From Myxococcales bacterium (GTDB taxonomy: Bacteria; Myxococcota_A; Polyangia; Polyangiales; DASUME01): 64,000 nt of DNA. A model generated the notes under the pieces. The model made no database searches, was not told where the DNA came from, and saw only the letters and a program-made list of their open reading frames with translations. Each line of letters begins with the position of its first letter. Position 1 is the stretch's first letter. A program made the position numbers and the translations under genes. Location of the stretch: the NCBI GenBank assembly GCA_047601445.1, contig JASGJH010000001.1, positions 4,864,001-4,928,000 on the forward strand, in the 5' to 3' direction. Of the stretch, positions 3,080-11,689 are shown in pieces.

Positions 3080-3144
3080 ACGCAAAATGTGCCGGCACCT
3101 TCAGGTGCTGATCACGACCGAACCAACCAACCAGGAGAACGACA

Positions 3145-3336
3145 ATGAACGAAAACATGCTGGTTTCCCTTGATGACGCGGCCCTTGAAGACGTGAACGG
3201 TGGCCTCTCGGTCAACCTCGGCGTGAACGATCAGAGCATCGTGTCCGCCAGCCTTGACCTCAAGAACGGCATCGCCGCCAGCCTCAGCCTCTTCGGCAAG
3301 AACCTCGTCAAGCTCAGCCTCAGCATCTTCGGCTGA
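3145..3336 (+). CDS. Double-glycine-leader precursor peptide (bacteriocin/microcin-like substrate of the adjacent exporter)
   Basis: RBS AGGAG at 3133-3137; leader MNENMLVSLDDAALEDVNGG fits the LxxxxLxxVxGG consensus; 43-aa core; directly upstream of a C39-ABC transporter operon. Confidence 0.85.
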   Translation: MNENMLVSLDDAALEDVNGGLSVNLGVNDQSIVSASLDLKNGIAASLSLFGKNLVKLSLSIFG

Positions 3337-3356
3337 TCCTGCCTTTGGCAGGAACG

Positions 3357-3397
3357 CACCGGGCTCACCACCGCCGGCGAGCCCGGTGTTTTCTTTT
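3357..3397 (+). terminator. Intrinsic terminator after the precursor peptide gene
   Basis: Stem CACCGGGCTC/GAGCCCGGTG followed by TTTTCTTTT; a second small hairpin TCCTGCC-TTT-GGCAGGA lies at 3337-3353. Confidence 0.75.
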
Positions 3398-3449: not shown

Positions 3450-4430
3450 ATGTCTGACCGCGTGATCGTTAGTCTCGCAGCCATCCCTATGATCTCGGGA
3501 GCAGTGCTCCTGGTGGCCTTCCAGCGCGCACCTGCGCTCCACGCGGCCGCTCCCAAGGGACAGCGCGCAGCAGCGGTCGCCGGCCAGGACCAGAAGCACA
3601 GCACCACGTGGGTGGGTGTTATCTCCGCCGGCAACACGGCCGAGCTAGCCGCCGAGGCCGACGGCAAGGTCACCGAGGTGTGGCTCGAGGCCGGCGCTCG
3701 CGTGAAGGCGGACCAGCAGATCCTGCAGATTGATAGCAGCGATGCCGCAGGCGCCCTGGGCATGGCCAGCGCCGAGCTGGGTCAGCGCTCGTCCGAGATC
3801 GCCCGCGCCTCGGCCCGACTCGAGGAAGCCCGCGCCAAGCTCGGCCGCCTCAAGGCCGGCGGAAAATGGATTGCGGATCACGAGATCGCCCAAGCCGCCG
3901 CCGAGGCACGCATGGCCGAGGCGGAGTATCGAGGAGCCCAGGCAGCTGCCCAGATGGGTCGCGCCAAGGTTCACATGCAGAAGAACCGAGAGGCTCGCTA
4001 TCGCTTGCGCGCCCCCTTCGACGGCACCCTGGTGACCTGTGATGTCGACCCCGGGGATAGCGTGCGCGCTGGGCAGGTGCTGGCCCGAGTCATCAGTGAC
4101 GATCGCCAGGTACGCTTCGCGCTGCCTCCCGATCAGGCTCCCCAGGAGGGCGAGTTCGAAGTCCTTGTGCGAGATCCCCTGTCGGACCGCAGTATGATCA
4201 CCAAGATCAAGACCGTGAAACCCGAGATTGATACCTCTGCCCAGCTCGTATTCGCCACCGCGGTGCTAGCCCTCGACCAGAACCAGCTCAAGACCTGGCT
4301 GCCGGGAACCCGAGTGGAAGTGTCGCCTTCGAATCAGGCTTCCGCCATCATGCACAACGAGCAGTTCGCTCCCGTGGCCGCCGGCGCTACCGACAAGCCC
4401 AGCGTGCCCGCCCTGCCGCGAGAGCGGTGA
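3450..4430 (+). CDS. Periplasmic adaptor / membrane fusion protein (HlyD/RND MFP family)
   Basis: N-terminal TM helix, lipoyl half-motifs (GKVTEVWLEAGARVKADQ; LRAPFDG...VDPGDSVRAGQ) and an alpha-hairpin coiled coil. Confidence 0.85.
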   Translation: MSDRVIVSLAAIPMISGAVLLVAFQRAPALHAAAPKGQRAAAVAGQDQKHSTTWVGVISAGNTAELAAEADGKVTEVWLEAGARVKADQQILQIDSSDAAGALGMASAELGQRSSEIARASARLEEARAKLGRLKAGGKWIADHEIAQAAAEARMAEAEYRGAQAAAQMGRAKVHMQKNREARYRLRAPFDGTLVTCDVDPGDSVRAGQVLARVISDDRQVRFALPPDQAPQEGEFEVLVRDPLSDRSMITKIKTVKPEIDTSAQLVFATAVLALDQNQLKTWLPGTRVEVSPSNQASAIMHNEQFAPVAAGATDKPSVPALPRER

Positions 4431-4433
4431 GCA

Positions 4434-5369
4434 ATGGCCACGCTGTTCCGCAAAGAAGCCGTCGAGCATCAGCGCAAGCGCATGGCTGCGCGCTCGGACC
4501 TGCTGCGCATCTCACCCGGCTCGACGGCCTGGATGTTCCGCATCCTGTGCGCCGCGCTGCTGGTCTCGTTGTTCTTCATGGTGGTGGGCAAGCTCAGTGA
4601 GTACGCCACCGGTCCTGCGGTAGTGCGCATCGAAGGTCGCACCACGTTGACCGCGGATTGGCCCGCCCTGGTGAGCAAGGTCCGGGTAGCTCCGGGCGAT
4701 CGCGTCAAGCAGGGTGACCTGCTGGTGCAGTTGTATGCCTCCGAGGAGGCCGCCGAATTCGAGGCGGTCTCGCAAGAGTTCAACGACCAGCTGAGCAAGC
4801 TCCTGAACAGTCCCGACGACGTCACCGCGCGAGAAGCACTGGTGTCGCTGCGCATGCGCCGGGACCTCGCCCGCTCACGCCTCGACCAGCGTTCGCTGCG
4901 CGCGCCCCACGACGGCGTCGTCGGTGACGTGCGCGTGCGCCCGGGTCAGATGCTGGAGGCGGGCATGTCGGTGCTCGAGCTGGTGGGCGAGCAAGCGTCG
5001 GCCACGGTGATCGCCATGCTACCCGGTCGCTATCGCCCCTTGATCAAGTCAGGCGCGGCGATTCGCTTCGAGATCGAAGGTTTCCATCGCCGCACGCAGG
5101 AGCTGGAGATCTCGGGCGTGGCCGACCAAGTGGTGGGTCCCGCCGAGGCGGCCCGCTACATCGGGAAAGATCTCTCCGATGCCTTCCCGGTGCAGGGCCC
5201 TGTGGTGTTGGTACAGGCCCAGTTGCCCTCGGACTACTTCGAAGCGGAAGGAACCCGCTTTCAATACGCGCACGGCATGCACGGCCGTGCCGAGACCGTG
5301 GTGCGCGATGAGCCCGTCGCATACGCGTTTTTGCCAGGGCTTAGACAGTGGGTAGAGCGTGTCTGGTGA
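4434..5369 (+). CDS. HlyD-family secretion adaptor of the peptide-exporter type
   Basis: N-terminal LFRKEA motif, TM helix, VAPGDRVKQGDLL and LRAPHDGVV lipoyl motifs; overlaps the ABC gene start. Confidence 0.85.
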   Translation: MATLFRKEAVEHQRKRMAARSDLLRISPGSTAWMFRILCAALLVSLFFMVVGKLSEYATGPAVVRIEGRTTLTADWPALVSKVRVAPGDRVKQGDLLVQLYASEEAAEFEAVSQEFNDQLSKLLNSPDDVTAREALVSLRMRRDLARSRLDQRSLRAPHDGVVGDVRVRPGQMLEAGMSVLELVGEQASATVIAMLPGRYRPLIKSGAAIRFEIEGFHRRTQELEISGVADQVVGPAEAARYIGKDLSDAFPVQGPVVLVQAQLPSDYFEAEGTRFQYAHGMHGRAETVVRDEPVAYAFLPGLRQWVERVW

Positions 5370-8079
5370 GGCCAAACCTAGCGAGCCCGCGAAGCAAAAG
5401 ACGCGCGTGCTTGGTCTGGGGAGGGAGCGCAGCATCCCGTTCGTTCCCCAGCTCACACCCACCGATTGTGGCACCGCTTGTGTGGCGGCCATCCTGGCGT
5501 TCCACGGCAAGAACATCCCGATCGGCAACATTCGTCAAGCCCTGGGCGGCGGGCGCAACGGCGTATCCGCGCGTCAGCTGGTGCAGGTCTCGCGCAGTCT
5601 GGGTCTGCGCGCGCGCGGCGTGGCAGTCGAGCCGAAGAGCCTGCCTTTCCTGCCCACGGCGAGCATCCTGCACTGGGATCTCAACCACTTCGTGGTCTTC
5701 CACAAGTGCGACACCAAGTTCCTCTACATCGTCGACCCGGCGGTGGGTCGCCGCAAGATCCCGCTGGCGGAGGCCTCCAAGTCGCTGACTGGCGTGGCCA
5801 TCGTGTTGGAGCCCGGCGAGGGCTTCGTGCGCGAGAAGGGCGCCACGCGCACGCGCTGGAACCGCTACAAGGACTGGATCCTCGGCGTACGCGGGCTGTG
5901 GGGGCGCATCCTCCTCACCTCGTTCTTCTTGCAGATGTTGTCGCTGGCGTTGCCGGGTTTGATGGGCGCGCTGGTCGACAAGGTGGTGCCGCGCAACGAC
6001 ACGCAGCTGCTCACGCTGGTGAGCTCCGCGTTCCTCAGCGTCACCTCGTTCTACTTCTTGTCCTCGTTCTTGCGCGCGCGCCTGCTCCTGCACCTGCGCA
6101 CCAAGGTCGAGGCCCGCATGTCGTTCGACTTCGTCGAGCACCTGTTCGCCCTGCCATACTCGTTCTTCCAGCAGCGCACCACGGGCGACCTGATGATGCG
6201 CATGAGCAGCCAGAACGCGATCCGCGAGATCCTCACCACCGGTGCGCTCTCCGCGTTGCTCGACGGCATCATGGTGCTCGTCTACTTCGCGCTGCTGATG
6301 GGCGCCTCGTGGCAGCTCGGCCTGGTGGCGCTCGGCATCGCGGGATTGCAGGTGGTGGTCTACCTCTATGCCGGCAAGAAGAACGCCGACTTGATGGCCG
6401 AGAACCTGGCCGCGCAGTCGCAGCTCGAGGGCTATCAGGTCGAGATGCTGTCGGGCGTCGAGACGCTCAAGTCGATGGGCGCGGAGAACAAGGCCACCGA
6501 GCGCTGGACCGATCTCTACGTCAACGTGCTCAATGCCTCGCTCGAGCGCGGTGAGTTGGGCGTGACTTTCCAGGCCCTGGTGAGCACGCTGCGCTTCGCG
6601 GGCCCGGTGGTGCTGATGTTGATGGGCGCCCACCTGGTGCTCACGGGTTCGCTCTCCCTTGGCATCATGCTGGCGCTGTCGTCGCTGGGCGCGGGCTTCC
6701 TCGATCCCATCACGAACCTCGTGAATACGGGCATGGAGATCTCCCAGCTCAAGAGCTACATGGCGCGCCTCGAAGACGTGCTCGATGCCGAGGTCGAGCA
6801 GAAGGGCGCGGCTTCGAGCCCCACGGAGCTGCAGGGTTCCATCGAGATCCGCAACCTGTCGTTCCGCTATCCCAGCGAGCCCAAGCCTGTGCTCGACGAT
6901 ATCCGCCTGGACATCGGGCGCGGCGAGAGCGTGGCCATCGTGGGCTCGTCGGGCTCCGGCAAGTCCACGCTGGCGCGCCTGATCGCAGGCCTGTACCAGC
7001 CCACCACGGGCATCGTGCTGTTCGACGGCACCGAGATGTCGCAGTGGAACCTCACCTCGCTACGCGAGAAGCTGGGCATCGTCACGCAGGACACGCGCCT
7101 CTTCTCGGGGAGCATCCGGGACAACATCACGCTGTTCGAGCCCACCGTGCCGCTCGAGGCGGTGGAGGAAGCCGCCGAGCTCGCGTGTCTGCATACGGAC
7201 ATCGCGGCCATGCCCATGCTGTACGACACCATGCTGGCGGACGGCGGCACGTCGCTCTCGGGTGGGCAGCGGCAGCGTCTTTCGCTGGCGCGCGCCTTGC
7301 TGCGCAAGCCGAACGTGTTGGTGCTGGACGAGGCCACGAGCGCGCTCGATACGGTGACCGAGCAGAAGGTCCAGGAGCGCCTGCGGACCCTCAACTGCAC
7401 GCGCGTGATCATCGCGCACCGCCTGAGCACCATCGTCGAGGCGGACAAGATCGTGGTGCTCGAGCACGGCAAGCTGATGGGCATCGGACGCCACGAAGAT
7501 CTCTTGATCAGTTGCCCGACCTATCAAGCCTTGATCCGCGCACAGCAGGATGCCCCCAAGGGCGCCAGCAGCTTCGCGCAGCGCATCAAGGCCGAGCGCA
7601 CCGCGGTCTCCAGGCCGCCCACGGCGGCCTCCCCCAGCGCGGCCCCGGCGACCCGAGCTCCCTACACATCGGCGCCACCAGGCATGGACCCCTCCCGAGC
7701 GCCCCTGGCCTCGCCGCACACGCCCTCGCCCTCGCGGGCGCCTCTGCCTTCGCAGCACACGCCCTCGCCTTCGCGGGCACCACTGGCGTCGCCGCACACG
7801 CCCTCGCCCTCGCGGGCACCACTCGCGTCGCCGCACACGCCCTCGCCCTCGCGGGCGCCTGTGCCCTCTCAGTACCCACCGTCCCCCTCGCGCGCGCCAC
7901 AACAGCCCGCGCCACAAGGAGGGTCGTCCTCACGTGCGCCGCAAACCGCCCCTCAAGGGACTCCTCCGCCGCGCGCGCCGCAGTCCGTACCGCCGCAAGG
8001 GTTGTCGCCTTCGGTGCCCCAGAGCGCCGGCCCAGAGCTCCCCGCCGATCCCATCGTGCTCACCCAGCGCAAGCGGTGA
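5359..8079 (+). CDS. Peptidase-containing ABC transporter (C39 peptidase, TMD, NBD) with a Pro-rich C-terminal tail
   Basis: C39 motifs QLTPTDCG, NHFVV and IVDPA; Walker A GSSGSGKST, signature LSGGQRQR, Walker B VLVLDEAT, and IAHRLST. Confidence 0.93.
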   Translation: MSGEAKPSEPAKQKTRVLGLGRERSIPFVPQLTPTDCGTACVAAILAFHGKNIPIGNIRQALGGGRNGVSARQLVQVSRSLGLRARGVAVEPKSLPFLPTASILHWDLNHFVVFHKCDTKFLYIVDPAVGRRKIPLAEASKSLTGVAIVLEPGEGFVREKGATRTRWNRYKDWILGVRGLWGRILLTSFFLQMLSLALPGLMGALVDKVVPRNDTQLLTLVSSAFLSVTSFYFLSSFLRARLLLHLRTKVEARMSFDFVEHLFALPYSFFQQRTTGDLMMRMSSQNAIREILTTGALSALLDGIMVLVYFALLMGASWQLGLVALGIAGLQVVVYLYAGKKNADLMAENLAAQSQLEGYQVEMLSGVETLKSMGAENKATERWTDLYVNVLNASLERGELGVTFQALVSTLRFAGPVVLMLMGAHLVLTGSLSLGIMLALSSLGAGFLDPITNLVNTGMEISQLKSYMARLEDVLDAEVEQKGAASSPTELQGSIEIRNLSFRYPSEPKPVLDDIRLDIGRGESVAIVGSSGSGKSTLARLIAGLYQPTTGIVLFDGTEMSQWNLTSLREKLGIVTQDTRLFSGSIRDNITLFEPTVPLEAVEEAAELACLHTDIAAMPMLYDTMLADGGTSLSGGQRQRLSLARALLRKPNVLVLDEATSALDTVTEQKVQERLRTLNCTRVIIAHRLSTIVEADKIVVLEHGKLMGIGRHEDLLISCPTYQALIRAQQDAPKGASSFAQRIKAERTAVSRPPTAASPSAAPATRAPYTSAPPGMDPSRAPLASPHTPSPSRAPLPSQHTPSPSRAPLASPHTPSPSRAPLASPHTPSPSRAPVPSQYPPSPSRAPQQPAPQGGSSSRAPQTAPQGTPPPRAPQSVPPQGLSPSVPQSAGPELPADPIVLTQRKR
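7693..7899 (+). repeat. Coding 39-nt tandem repeat, about 5 copies (SRAPLASPHTPSP)
   Basis: Units start at 7693, 7732, 7771, 7810, 7849 and partially 7888, all in frame in the transporter tail. Confidence 0.9.
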
Positions 8080-8240: not shown

Positions 8241-10295
8241 TCACCGTGCCGCATCTGCGTCTCGAACGAAGCGCATGTCGATCGACATATCTCGTCTAAA
8301 ATCGAAGAACATCTGACGCACGACGTCCAGCGTCTCAGGCTGTACTCCTTCGGCCCGGACTTCGAGCTCCGCGCTCACAGTGGCCTGGCTGCCGTTCAGC
8401 GCGACCCTGCGGCTCACACGAAAACCGAAAGCTGAGCCTTCGAGCGGAGCGACTGCGCCCGTCCAGTGGTATCCCGCCGGGGCATTCAGGACGTAGCGGA
8501 TGAGATAGCGATGAGCGACGGGGACGCGCATCGCACTCCCTCGCAGCTCCATGAACCCTTTCTTGCGCGCGGCCAGTGCTTCGTCACGTTCCTCGGGCAC
8601 GCGCTCGGCATTCGGCGCGTCGAGCACTCGGCCGGGCAGGTAGTCGAAGAGCGGGGCGAACCCCAGCGAGACCGACCCACCTTGCTCCGTGGCCTGATAT
8701 GCCTTGGCTTGCGGCACATCCACGATGCGCTCGAGGTGCGTCGACGGGTCGTCGTGAACCGTGCAAGAGGCCTGAAAGGTGCGTGCACCGTAGACCCTCT
8801 CGACGTCGGGGCGCATGGCTTCTGCCAACTGCTCCGACGTCTTGTCCCAATCCTCACGCACGACCGAGATCAGAGCCCCGGATGCTCGCGCGATCTCCTT
8901 CACGTGCGCTGGGCCTGCTTGCAAGAAATCAATCCTGATCTCCGTTTCACGGGCGCTCGCGTCCAGCGGCGTGCGCGGCGTAGGCACCAAGTCCTCGGTT
9001 CCTGCAGACACGACGAGGGCCCGACGAGCCTGATCTTGATAGGGGAGCACGTTGGGCGACGCGTACGGTGCCACGGGATCGATCCAAACATCCGGGCTTC
9101 CTGCGATATGCACGATCACGTGATTGAACAGGCCAAACCCCGCCAGATCTGGATACACGTCGATGTCCAGGCCCGCCCGCAGCAACGCCAGGTTGGCCTC
9201 GAAACCGGCAGCGCGTAAGAGCCCTACCAGCAGCGTGCTCTGATCCTTGCAATCACCGTAGAGCCGGCTGAGCACCTCGGCTGGCGGAGCGGGATAGTAC
9301 GCGCGCTGTCCGAACTCGAGCCCGAGATAGCGGACCTTGCTGCGAACGAATGCGAGAATCTTGCGCAGCTTGGTCGCCCGATCGTCTCCGTCGGCGACGA
9401 TCCGTTCGAGCACTTTGCCTGCATCGAAACTCGATAGCGTCGTCTCGACATCCTTGGCGTAGCTGCGCGCCACCGCCTGCCAACTATCGGCGGTGCTGAC
9501 GTCGACGAGTGGGACCACGCGAACTCGCGGGTCGAGGGGCGGCTGCTCGTGATCCACCAGGGAGTAGACTACCCGCTGCGAGTCCGCGTGCTTTTCGAGC
9601 TTGGGCGGAGGTACGCCGCCACGGGTTCGACTGTGCACTTTGACTTGCTCGGGAAATTCCAGAATCAAGCGCTGGAGGGCCGCGAAGCGCCAGTGCCCAA
9701 AGATCACGCGGTACAGATTCCCGACGTCGAAGCGCGGGGCCTCCTCTTCCACCACGATCAATTGCTCCACGACCGCGCCAGGCTGCAGACCCGGAAGCGG
9801 AGCAGCAAGCACCCGGTTGTCGCTGAAGATTCGCGGCTCGCTGCTAGGGACGGCCGACTCTACCAGCCTCGCCGGGTCGAGCTCGATTGCCTTGCCGCCG
9901 GGCGTAACGACCCGCGCGCGGATGGTGGGTCGATGCTCGATCCACGGCGAGTATTGCGCAGAAACCGTGCTCCACTCGTGGCTCGTCAGCGCTCTCGAGT
10001 TGTTGACACGGAAGATCGCGTGGTGTTCCCGAATCAGGCGCTTGCGGCGATCGAAGCGTAGCCTGGTCTGCTCACATAGTACGACGGCATCGAGCCCTGG
10101 CGGCGCTTGGTCTGCGTTGAGCTCCAGTAGCTCGCGCGGCGTGAGCGAGAAGGCGGGCTTGATCAGCGCGTCGTAGACCTCTGGCCGCAGCGCCATGACG
10201 CGGCCAGCAGACGCCGTCTGCAATAGCCCTACGAGGCAGGACAGATACACGACTGGAACGCAACGCTTCAACGTGCGATGGATGGCGCTGCTCAA
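8241..10295 (-). CDS. DUF3857 plus transglutaminase-like domain protein, probably exported
   Basis: GDCKD catalytic Cys motif, FNHVI His, WIDP Asp; VRY..LEFG...Y.P motif; N-terminal hydrophobic signal. Confidence 0.85.
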   Translation of the reverse strand: MSSAIHRTLKRCVPVVYLSCLVGLLQTASAGRVMALRPEVYDALIKPAFSLTPRELLELNADQAPPGLDAVVLCEQTRLRFDRRKRLIREHHAIFRVNNSRALTSHEWSTVSAQYSPWIEHRPTIRARVVTPGGKAIELDPARLVESAVPSSEPRIFSDNRVLAAPLPGLQPGAVVEQLIVVEEEAPRFDVGNLYRVIFGHWRFAALQRLILEFPEQVKVHSRTRGGVPPPKLEKHADSQRVVYSLVDHEQPPLDPRVRVVPLVDVSTADSWQAVARSYAKDVETTLSSFDAGKVLERIVADGDDRATKLRKILAFVRSKVRYLGLEFGQRAYYPAPPAEVLSRLYGDCKDQSTLLVGLLRAAGFEANLALLRAGLDIDVYPDLAGFGLFNHVIVHIAGSPDVWIDPVAPYASPNVLPYQDQARRALVVSAGTEDLVPTPRTPLDASARETEIRIDFLQAGPAHVKEIARASGALISVVREDWDKTSEQLAEAMRPDVERVYGARTFQASCTVHDDPSTHLERIVDVPQAKAYQATEQGGSVSLGFAPLFDYLPGRVLDAPNAERVPEERDEALAARKKGFMELRGSAMRVPVAHRYLIRYVLNAPAGYHWTGAVAPLEGSAFGFRVSRRVALNGSQATVSAELEVRAEGVQPETLDVVRQMFFDFRRDMSIDMRFVRDADAAR

Positions 10296-10411
10296 GACAA
10301 GGCTCCGTCGGAGACGCTCGAGTATGGCACGGTCGCCGCCCAGACGGCGACGTGCACCCGGCCGGCCTACGGGGACTCACCCCAATCGAGGAAACGGCTC
10401 CTTGGAGGGGC

Positions 10412-11689
10412 TTAGAACGCCTCGCGGAACTGGAGGCACGGATAGAACTCGTCGCCGTAAGCCAGGTCCAGGCGGATGTTCACGCGATCGCGCTTGTCCA
10501 CCGAGAAGCGAATGCCACCGCCGCCCGCCACGTGCAGATCCCGCATGTCGAAATGCTTCACGCTGCTCGCCACACGTCCCACGCTGCCGAAAGCGACCGC
10601 GGCCCAGCGCTTGGTGATGGGCAGGCGGTACTCCGCCTCCACGGCGATCAGCAGGCGATCGCGCAGCTGACCTCCATACCAACCGCGAAACAGGCTCGGC
10701 CCGCCGAGCTGCGGCAGGCGTTGGAACGGCACCTCTCCCCACACGGATTGGGAGACGAAGCGCAGCGCGAGGACGTGATCGAGCCACAGGCGCTGGTAGT
10801 GACGTAGGTCGAGCGCCAAGCGGCGATAGCGAATGTCGCTGCCGAGAATCGGATCGAAGAAGGTGCTCTTGGCTTCCGCGAAGCTTCCCTTGTTCGGCCA
10901 GCTCAAGCTGTCGCGACTGTCCCAGGTCAACGTGGGCCCGAGTCCCGAGGCCACGAACTCGCGCTCGCCGCGGTCGTGCACTTCCTTGAGCTTGTCGCCG
11001 TTGCCGTCGCGCATGCTGCTCCACAGGCCCGCGTAGTTCACGCCCACGAAAAGCGAGCGCATGCCATGCCCCTCGTTGAAGGGTCGCAGCTTGAAATCGA
11101 TGTCGCCGCGGAAGTAGCGGTCGGTGAAGGGGCTATAGTCGTCGCGCTTGTTGTCGTTGCCGATGCCGAAGAAGCGACTCGGATAGCGCGCCCCCGCCAG
11201 GTCTGCTCGAAGCACGTAGTCGTCGTTACCAAAGCGCAGGTCCGGAGTGATTTGCCCCATGATCTGCTTGTTGAGCGTGTACACCGCCCCCATGGCGATG
11301 GTGCTCGGCCGACGTCCCCCGGCGGCTCCGGGCAGATCGAACTGCAGCAACGTGCCGGCGCCCAATCCGAGGCTCGTCTCGTTCGAGTAGTAGACGATGG
11401 GTAGGACCTTGAAGTAGTCCCAGACCCTCTTGCGGGGCGGCAAGATGCCGGCGGTGACGGGCTCCACCTGGACCGCAACGGGCGGACTCGAAACGCTATC
11501 GGTCTCGGCTGGCGGCACCGCAGCCACGGCCGGTGGCCTGTTTTCGCTGTCGTCCTGTAACGCTGGGTCGACTGGCGGCGTCTGAGTGACAGCAGCTCCC
11601 TCCTGAAGACGCTCCTCGGCACGCGCACAGGGACGCGAAAGCCATACGCTCGCGCAGAGCGCGGCGCACACGAGGATCCACGAGAGCAT
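10412..11689 (-). CDS. Omp85 (BamA/TamA-like) outer-membrane beta-barrel, apparently without POTRA domains
   Basis: Signal peptide, Pro-rich linker, WDSRD...P..G, LGG...FRG loop-6 motif, GGGIRF, IRLDLAYG and a C-terminal Phe. Confidence 0.8.
   Translation of the reverse strand: MLSWILVCAALCASVWLSRPCARAEERLQEGAAVTQTPPVDPALQDDSENRPPAVAAVPPAETDSVSSPPVAVQVEPVTAGILPPRKRVWDYFKVLPIVYYSNETSLGLGAGTLLQFDLPGAAGGRRPSTIAMGAVYTLNKQIMGQITPDLRFGNDDYVLRADLAGARYPSRFFGIGNDNKRDDYSPFTDRYFRGDIDFKLRPFNEGHGMRSLFVGVNYAGLWSSMRDGNGDKLKEVHDRGEREFVASGLGPTLTWDSRDSLSWPNKGSFAEAKSTFFDPILGSDIRYRRLALDLRHYQRLWLDHVLALRFVSQSVWGEVPFQRLPQLGGPSLFRGWYGGQLRDRLLIAVEAEYRLPITKRWAAVAFGSVGRVASSVKHFDMRDLHVAGGGGIRFSVDKRDRVNIRLDLAYGDEFYPCLQFREAF

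Follow-up and report, generated by a model that had tools for sequence, protein, structure and literature searches.

An unnamed double-glycine peptide family with a predicted four-stranded amphipathic core in a single Myxococcales genus

The 64,000-nucleotide stretch of myxobacterial DNA analysed here (the window) encodes a 63-residue precursor whose 43-residue mature core is predicted to form four amphipathic β-strands, and which belongs to an unnamed peptide family that, as judged by sequence searches, is found in one Myxococcales genus only. We propose, with about as much reason to expect the proposal to hold as to fail, that the product is an unmodified peptide secreted in bulk, the sheets of which associate along their edges to build a film or fibre at the surface. 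Homology searches, structure prediction, repeat statistics, codon usage and gene context bear on this reading and on its competitors, which include a microcin-like weapon.

The precursor gene (3145–3336, + strand; an open reading frame call without a named family) is real, and a ribosome-binding site stands at 3133–3137 (+), 7 nt 5′ of its ATG. Its product comprises a double-glycine leader of 20 residues (residues 1–20; 3145–3204, +), acidic with a charge of −5 and ending in Gly19-Gly20, a pair invariant in 39 of 39 aligned precursors, followed by the mature core (residues 21–63; 3205–3333, +), which is predicted to consist of four β-strands and three short turns and has 8 Ser, no Cys and a net charge of +1. 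An earlier reading made from the letters alone (the sequence-only reading) had placed the core at 3205–3333 after a leader and had given 8 Ser, no Cys and a charge of about +1; the Gly-Gly pair of the open reading frame bears out the first statement and our composition count agrees with the second. The leader charge of −5 recurs in 31 of the 39 aligned leaders but, as double-glycine leaders are acidic in general, it is not distinctive of this family; a putative block of assembly by the acidic leader is plausible. The precursor has no Pfam or NCBIfam match, nor do 28 family members (best E values 0.018 and 0.076, respectively). PDB sequences returned a single chance match to the peptide (E 9.8), a plasmid sequence search was blank, metagenome scans confirmed no family locus and no longer protein containing the core was detected at E ≤ 1, which is weak evidence. 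Two long matches, of 5,599 and 582 residues, were rejected as relatives because they are repeat proteins with chance similarity.

Sequence searches for relatives of the precursor gave 12, 16 and 38 matches, which carry the label ‘hypothetical protein’ where their source annotates them. The family alignment holds 39 distinct precursors, the window’s own included; it omits P0027, which has a long N-terminal extension, a divergent member of genome G027 (L012), P0043, P0044 and a set of strand-plus-helix peptides. Matches occur in seven of the ten genomes of the window’s taxonomic family, all of one genus; six of these genomes have the window’s core type, and in G055, the seventh, the leader precedes a different core. 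A class-wide sample contained matches in 3 of 401 genomes, the two besides the window’s own genome (G000) matching in the leader only. G000, which is a single 9.5 Mb contig, has four copies (at the window locus, at 7.659 Mb and, as a tandem pair, at 5.456 Mb), and G006 has three, including a tandem pair with identical proteins (core pS 0.31, pN 0; for the G000 pair, core pS 0.09 and pN 0.01; all uncorrected distances). A full exporter cassette lies directly 3′ of a family gene in G000, G076, G006 and G069. The remaining copies are orphans without a cassette and are presumably served by an exporter in trans; in G062, the end of the contig truncates the copy. Near-identical leaders also precede short cores that have one strand or none plus an amphipathic segment (P0018, P0020, P0045, P0047 and L020:1501-1689), which suggests that cores have been exchanged behind a fixed leader.

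The structural argument begins with an AlphaFold2 model of the monomer, computed with the leader attached and the 39-row alignment as input. Four strands are predicted, at residues 20–27 (strand 1; 3205–3225, +), 30–38 (strand 2; 3232–3258, +), 43–49 (strand 3; 3271–3291, +) and 52–59 (strand 4; 3298–3321, +, with the alternation continuing to about 3327); the pLDDT is 71–76 over residues 21–60, the pTM is 0.41 and the leader forms a low-confidence helix at residues 5–16 (pLDDT 54–56). The connections between strands are two to four residues long, and their glycines are well kept, that of turn 2, before strand 3, in 38 of 39 cores and that of turn 3 in 34. Turns this short are typical of tight antiparallel hairpins, unlike the arcs of curli solenoids, and from them we infer that the predicted core is a β-meander. 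Hydrophobic moments agree with a strand periodicity, as the window’s core gave p = 0.026 for the β-moment and p = 0.46 for the α-moment against 1,000 shuffles, and across the family p ≤ 0.05 was reached by 35 of 39 cores for the β-moment and by one for the α-moment, these being related sequences and hence non-independent trials. In the family alignment, the greasy face is 98% Leu, Val, Ile, Phe, Ala or Gly (730 residues) and the opposite face is 77% Ser, Gly, Thr or Ala with 7% Asn plus Gln (501 residues), the faces having been assigned from the same alignment that supplied these compositions. The sequence-only reading had described four segments of alternating hydrophobic and small polar residues, with which the β-moment and the four modelled strands agree; its broader picture of a secreted, leader-cleaved, all-β amphipathic peptide draws support from the exporter, the β-moments and the predicted strands, and its notion of self-assembly is reasonable.

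Fold searches returned nothing specific (best Foldseek E 0.4; best VIA-align Z 4.7, none of 48,161 chains reaching Z ≥ 5), a result that demonstrates neither a new fold nor an absence of relatives. A four-strand sheet appears to be new as the fold of such exported cargo. Between non-tandem copies, the core has drifted by a pN of 0.15–0.45, compared with 0.02–0.17 in the leader (uncorrected distances), and the predicted amphipathic four-strand layout is a conserved trait, maintained despite this drift.

The core of the window’s copy is also repetitive, at a period of one strand plus one turn. In its DNA (3277–3333, +; sequence reading), two copies at 3277–3297 and 3313–3333, 36 nt apart, are alike at 18 of 21 bases and relate strand 3 to strand 4 at a spacing of 12 codons; the probability of this by chance is p = 0.0005 with the codon usage of neighbouring genes and p = 0.032 with the gene’s own narrow codon usage. 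The protein is most similar to itself at an offset of 12 residues (score 44, 12 of 31 identical), with p = 0.0006 by plain shuffling and 0 of 5,000 shuffles that preserve the hydrophobic/polar pattern, whereas an offset of 22 scores 22. The period of the window’s core is 12 residues (36 nt), that is, one strand plus one turn. We reject on this basis the two-fold hairpin repeat of about 22 residues proposed in the sequence-only reading, the two halves of which align with p = 0.018 by plain shuffling and p = 0.13 with the pattern kept; that the DNA repeats was correctly seen, at a spacing of 36 nt instead of 66 nt. Across the family, the best offset is 10–12 in 18 of 39 cores and 22 in three, and the small excess in mean self-similarity at offset 22 (12.5 versus 9.6) is compatible with two strand periods added together. 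Self-similarity beyond the strand pattern is seen in only 6 of the 39 cores, so the clear repeat is peculiar to the window’s copy, in which it perhaps arose by local duplication.

Three exporter genes follow on the same strand. These encode an RND-adaptor-like membrane-fusion (periplasmic adaptor) protein (3450–4430, +; TIGR01730 over cut-off, HlyD_3), a second, HlyD-like membrane-fusion protein (4434–5369, +; HlyD_3 and HlyD_D23 over cut-off) and a PCAT (an ABC transporter that includes a peptidase) with C39, ABC membrane and ATPase domains and a Pro/Ser/Ala-rich tail (5359–8079, +). The C39 domain retains Gln31, Cys37, His110 and Asp126, which we take to be the catalytic residues of such peptidases. 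The tail (7550–8079) has about 170 Pro/Ser/Ala-rich residues with several near-identical 14-residue units. The window’s genome has two C39 domains and 40 TolC-family domain matches. The cassette is widespread, its second adaptor matching in 70 of 301 class genomes, and in relatives it accompanies other cargo, namely strand-plus-helix peptides in a sister family and RiPP-like precursors in more distant ones, which counts against a structural reading of the peptide. In the sister-family cargo (f3; L013–L018, L061 and L062), two or three short strands occur with a Pro and a lengthy amphipathic segment, the end of which is a conserved Leu-Phe-x-Phe; no membrane immunity-like open reading frame was found at six f3 loci, and one f3-type protein (P0046, locus not seen) passes the Bacteriocin_IIc cut-off. 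More distant cassettes (L045, L047, L048, L051, L052 and L055) adjoin other double-glycine precursors, with short Cys/Asp cores or with repeated Thr-Thr-Leu-Ala-x-Gly-Glu-Glu cores that look, to our eye, graspetide-like. Cores of the window’s type (type A) and sister-family cores share 14 aligned columns at a probability of 10%, and type A and type B cores have no alignable columns, so common ancestry of the cores of these cargo types is not established.

The RiPP-like precursors beside the distant cassettes raise the idea that the window’s peptide is itself either a precursor on which an enzyme from another locus acts, for example by converting alternate Ser/Thr to D-residues in a gramicidin-like β-helix, or a signalling peptide. 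The placement of Ser, Gly and Thr at every second position would suit such chemistry, and the nearest ESM Atlas clusters are labelled ‘putative Type A2 lantipeptide’ (0.88 and 0.81, below the 0.9 lead threshold). No modifying enzyme common to the four cassette loci was found, however; LanC-like proteins occur in none of five genomes, in all of which a positive control was found, and LanB (none of five genomes) and a PoyD-type epimerase (none of four family genomes) were likewise absent in searches that had no working positive control. YcaO is present in two of five genomes and missing from the peptide-bearing G006 and G076, and Cys occurs in 5 of 39 cores, the window’s not among them. Codon bias at ribosomal level and gene duplication would be excessive for a signal. 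We consider a modified or signalling peptide improbable, and reject a lanthipeptide identity, as we do curli and Fap identities, because the features looked for were not found.

Beyond the cassette, two genes on the − strand (8241–11689) are oriented towards it, the first DUF3857/transglutaminase-like and the second of the Omp85 family. The former was rejected as a peptide modifier, not being conserved beside the cassette; the latter alone is retained there in G076. This neighbour brings outer-membrane assembly into consideration, with the peptide either as the subunit of a split four-strand barrel in the outer membrane of the producer itself or as an imitation strand by which the BamA of other bacteria would be jammed, for which no immunity gene would be needed. 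Bacteroidetocins target BamA, according to the portion of PMC8546649 available to us, and the last strand of the peptide is aromatic-rich, with Phe among the final three residues in 25 of 39 cores. Yet just 6 of 39 cores end in Phe, and the tails vary in length. Tyr or Trp is found in 2 of 39 cores, and the in-genome comparison with β-barrels had a single reference protein. The Omp85 gene, which lies past the cassette in both G000 and G076, is encoded on the opposite strand and does not adjoin the cassette of G069, and export through a PCAT and adaptors normally bypasses the periplasm. Of the explanations considered, this is the one that we hold to be the least probable.

The same genomes carry further double-glycine cargo. 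A second unnamed family (type B) has eight copies in G000, five of them in tandem before the second exporter cassette, and seven in G006 (L002:6922-8361 at 8.272 Mb and L003:6596-7418 at 3.711 Mb in G000; L072, L076 and L082 in G006), and is present in 2 of 301 genomes of the order sample. Type B cores have 17% Asn plus Gln, five invariant Asn in 15 sequences and high-expression codons, and, as candidates for a classical Asn-ladder amyloid, they are stronger than the window’s peptide. Two orphans complete the set. One is a double-glycine peptide (L004:6531-6746; G000 3741530) that has ordinary codons, no Pfam match and a zipper-like core rich in Gly and Leu; the other is a double-glycine open reading frame with a Pro-rich core (G000 4099227–4099400). 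The two exporters of G000 may serve at least four cargo types.

Several features point to strong expression of the peptide gene. A promoter-like two-box motif (CTCATAA, 16–17 nt, CCAC..TA; 2928–2959, +) is shared upstream of six of the eight family loci that have 300 nt of upstream DNA, orphan copies included, and its CATAA core is absent from all nine loci of other cargo types (one with only 141 nt upstream). The motif may be an alternative-sigma promoter; its second box resembles what we take to be a σ32-type −10 element, and our literature search found no published sigma consensus that matches it. At 20 bits or more, a genome scan gave five sites, three of them training sites, and wrong spacers gave 0–2; a role as a broad regulon signal was rejected, there being too few genomic sites above this background. 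The motif also recurs as a back-to-back pair of 27 and 25 bits (G000 9230367, −, and 9230380, +; L070), which precedes one open reading frame in which a myxobacterial metal-binding motif scores weakly (E 0.009, short of the cut-off) and another with no Pfam match.

Codon adaptation was scored against 26 translation and chaperonin genes of the window’s genome. The peptide gene scores 0.169, a value reached by 7 of 5,021 windows of 63 codons taken at random and by 3 of the 724 gene starts, compared with a leave-one-out median of 0.095 for the reference genes themselves; the three further G000 copies score 0.10–0.17, and both adaptors and the transporter are average. The codon usage of the peptide gene is thus similar to that of ribosomal-protein genes, which we take as a sign that it may be produced in bulk; such a bias reflects selection for translation and says nothing on function. 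A terminator-like hairpin with a U-tract (3356–3397, +) separates the peptide gene from the exporter genes. The segment 3337–3400 folds at −38.4 kcal/mol (z = −6.8), comparable hairpins occur at all four other loci folded (z from −3.6 to −6.7) and at each of the five the stability exceeds that of all 200 shuffles; a simple terminator scan by itself performed at chance level (1 found versus 0.9 expected).

On the reading that we favour, the shared promoter would transcribe the scattered copies, and the hairpin would hold exporter mRNA below the level of peptide mRNA. Known PCAT biology, taken with the gene order, indicates that the neighbouring transporter would cut with its C39 domain after Gly19-Gly20 and that the 43-residue core would exit by way of both adaptors and a channel of TolC type whose gene lies elsewhere. 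Once outside, the core is predicted to form an antiparallel sheet of four strands, one face of Leu/Val/Ile/Phe and the other of Ser/Gly/Thr/Ala. A lone sheet of this type could not bury its greasy face and so would have to oligomerise or sit at an interface, and as the predicted sheet encloses no core and both of its edges are free, it would be expected to grow into an open ribbon. With an even number of strands, strand 4 of one molecule could pair with strand 1 of the next, and the growing ribbon would be either a cross-β bilayer fibre or a one-sided film at the cell surface or at an air/solid interface. From the model, the core probably self-assembles, and its likely job would be surface coating, adhesion or matrix, like that of cyanobacterial EbfG.

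The main competitor is a weapon. Bacteriocin families typically combine a conserved leader with a variable core, and the sheets could instead close into a small oligomeric β-barrel (for example, 3 × 4 strands) in the membrane of a rival or prey, the greasy face outward and the Ser/Gly face towards the lumen, with possible storage as surface aggregates, as for CdzC or MccAB1. The strict two-face alternation and the small polar face suit a narrow lumen. Phe-Gly-Lys at turn 3 (Phe in 26 of 39) resembles a membrane-boundary motif, and one sister-type protein, as noted above, reaches a bacteriocin model. In its export anatomy the system matches class II microcins such as the amyloid-forming MccE492 and Acinetobacter MccAB1, which, in the parts of the published accounts at hand (PMC10233263, PMC12219008 and PMC13188072), share with the window’s system a double-glycine leader, a PCAT, a membrane-fusion protein and a TolC encoded elsewhere, as well as a core that is near-neutral, hydrophobic, Gly-rich and unmodified; the leader is known to be cut off behind Gly-Gly in these microcins, and export to take place in one step (PMC10233263). 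The sequence-only reading had set the peptide apart from cationic bacteriocins, a contrast that says little, since most Gram-negative class II microcins are described in the available text of that review as hydrophobic, Gly-rich and neutral or anionic.

Against a weapon stands the immunity scan, which found no credible membrane-type immunity open reading frame within 1 kb at ten family loci, whereas class II microcins normally have an adjacent one. Three open reading frames passed the filter, two of them antisense inside neighbouring genes and the third with a GC3 of 0.53 and overlapping the adaptor start; contigs break off at three of the ten loci, and such a scan would overlook an immunity protein that is soluble or encoded far away. 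Some double-glycine bacteriocins lack an immunity gene, as the accessible part of PMC10233263 reports. The presence of two adaptors, the orphan duplicate copies and the all-β core further separate the peptide from class II microcins, as do GAV motifs in none of 39 cores and Bacteriocin_IIc scores that no member of 28 brings to the cut-off (best E 0.02). The predicted strands, at 7–9 residues, are short for an inner membrane, the aromatic Tyr and Trp are as scarce as given above, and identical tandem copies speak for dosage, not diversification. We therefore see a microcin-like weapon as possible but doubtful, and distinctly less probable than the film or fibre. The two are not exclusive, since MccAB1 does both, amyloid and toxicity being combined in a microcin by the account in the available text of PMC13188072; by the same analogy, high expression and aggregation would also fit toxins, as in the Cdz system (PMC5380434) and MccAB1.

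Among the closest described systems is that of EbfG1–4 and PteB of Synechococcus elongatus, which, in those portions of PMC4997328 and PMC9981879 that we could draw on, are small double-glycine-leader proteins in several copies with a C39 PCAT exporter; EbfG1–4 need their GG motifs and PteB for biofilm, EbfG1–3 form amyloid and no antibacterial role is described in those portions. The window’s peptide differs in its shorter core, its regular four-strand amphipathic sheet and its phylum, EbfG being compared here by description and not by sequence. Its cores also lack the EbfG hotspot Ala-Phe/Ile-Asn-Ile-Gly/Ser (PMC9981879, in the text available), which, with the Asn/Gln ladder and the GAV motif, is one of three features each found in 0 of 39 cores, a result that counts against the favoured reading. 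CdzC and CdzD of Caulobacter are likewise bacteriocin-like hydrophobic proteins with a type I exporter, and CdzC gives formic-acid-soluble surface aggregates; glycine zippers, two partners and the immunity protein CdzI are Cdz features in the part of PMC5380434 to hand. The window’s core has no GxxxG, whereas three-Gly zippers occur in 15 of 39 relatives, in which they fall on one face of the β-strand, and four-Gly zippers in 5 of 39. The marks of a Cdz-like glycine-zipper bacteriocin, an extended zipper and a neighbouring immunity gene of CdzI type, were thus not found in the window’s system.

Curli (CsgA/B) and Pseudomonas Fap are, like the predicted peptide, secreted, β-rich and built of short strand-turn units, but they are Sec-exported Asn/Gln-ladder proteins with their own outer-membrane pore. 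The sequence-only reading had drawn an analogy to both, and it does not survive comparison. The peptide cores have 5% Asn plus Gln, Curlin_rpt is absent from 28 members and from the window’s genome (a control was detected in E. coli), and the curli QxGxxN motif and the Fap NQQ and GNxGN motifs each occur in 0 of 39 cores. FapD is a Sec-exported periplasmic peptidase outside any ABC transporter, unlike the window’s C39 domain, which is fused to one, and the Fap proteins are without canonical C39 sequences in the available text of PMC5557850. By analogy, the peptide resembles EbfG or an aggregating microcin in its export and probable assembly; membership in neither is established.

A more specific version of these ideas, which we put forward as speculative and rather unlikely in full, is a leader-gated, unmodified four-strand brick that polymerises edge to edge and is able to close on itself. 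The same tentative scheme would make the peptide a 43-residue self-inserting oligomeric β-barrel or a two-faced, hydrophobin-like monolayer coat for myxobacteria, and would count it, with the Asn-ladder type B, among the bulk structural peptides of the genus that use bacteriocin exporters.

Our literature search, covering titles and abstract openings with few subscription journals, returned no such myxobacterial peptide, supplementary microcin tables being a place where members could be listed; ‘Myxococc’ is absent from the main text of PMC12219008. Amyloid exported by the double-glycine/C39 route is already published, as far as the available text of those reports goes (EbfG and MccAB1, with CdzC aggregates), and only the fold and the lineage are new, so that the surprise is limited, the more so as the family was found in one genus only. 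If the favoured reading is true, myxobacteria would have a proteinaceous surface or matrix polymer that leaves through a bacteriocin-type machine and has an antiparallel amphipathic sheet as its basis, in place of the Asn/Gln ladders known from curli and Fap; if closed barrels form, the peptide would be a very small natural β-pore subunit. A core of 43 residues with 39 natural variants is synthesisable, making fibre, film and pore directly testable. On the favoured reading, the short list of double-glycine peptides with structural roles (EbfG, MccAB1 and CdzC) would extend to a new phylum and a new fold, and the ‘bacteriocins’ called by genome mining in myxobacteria would include peptides that are not weapons.
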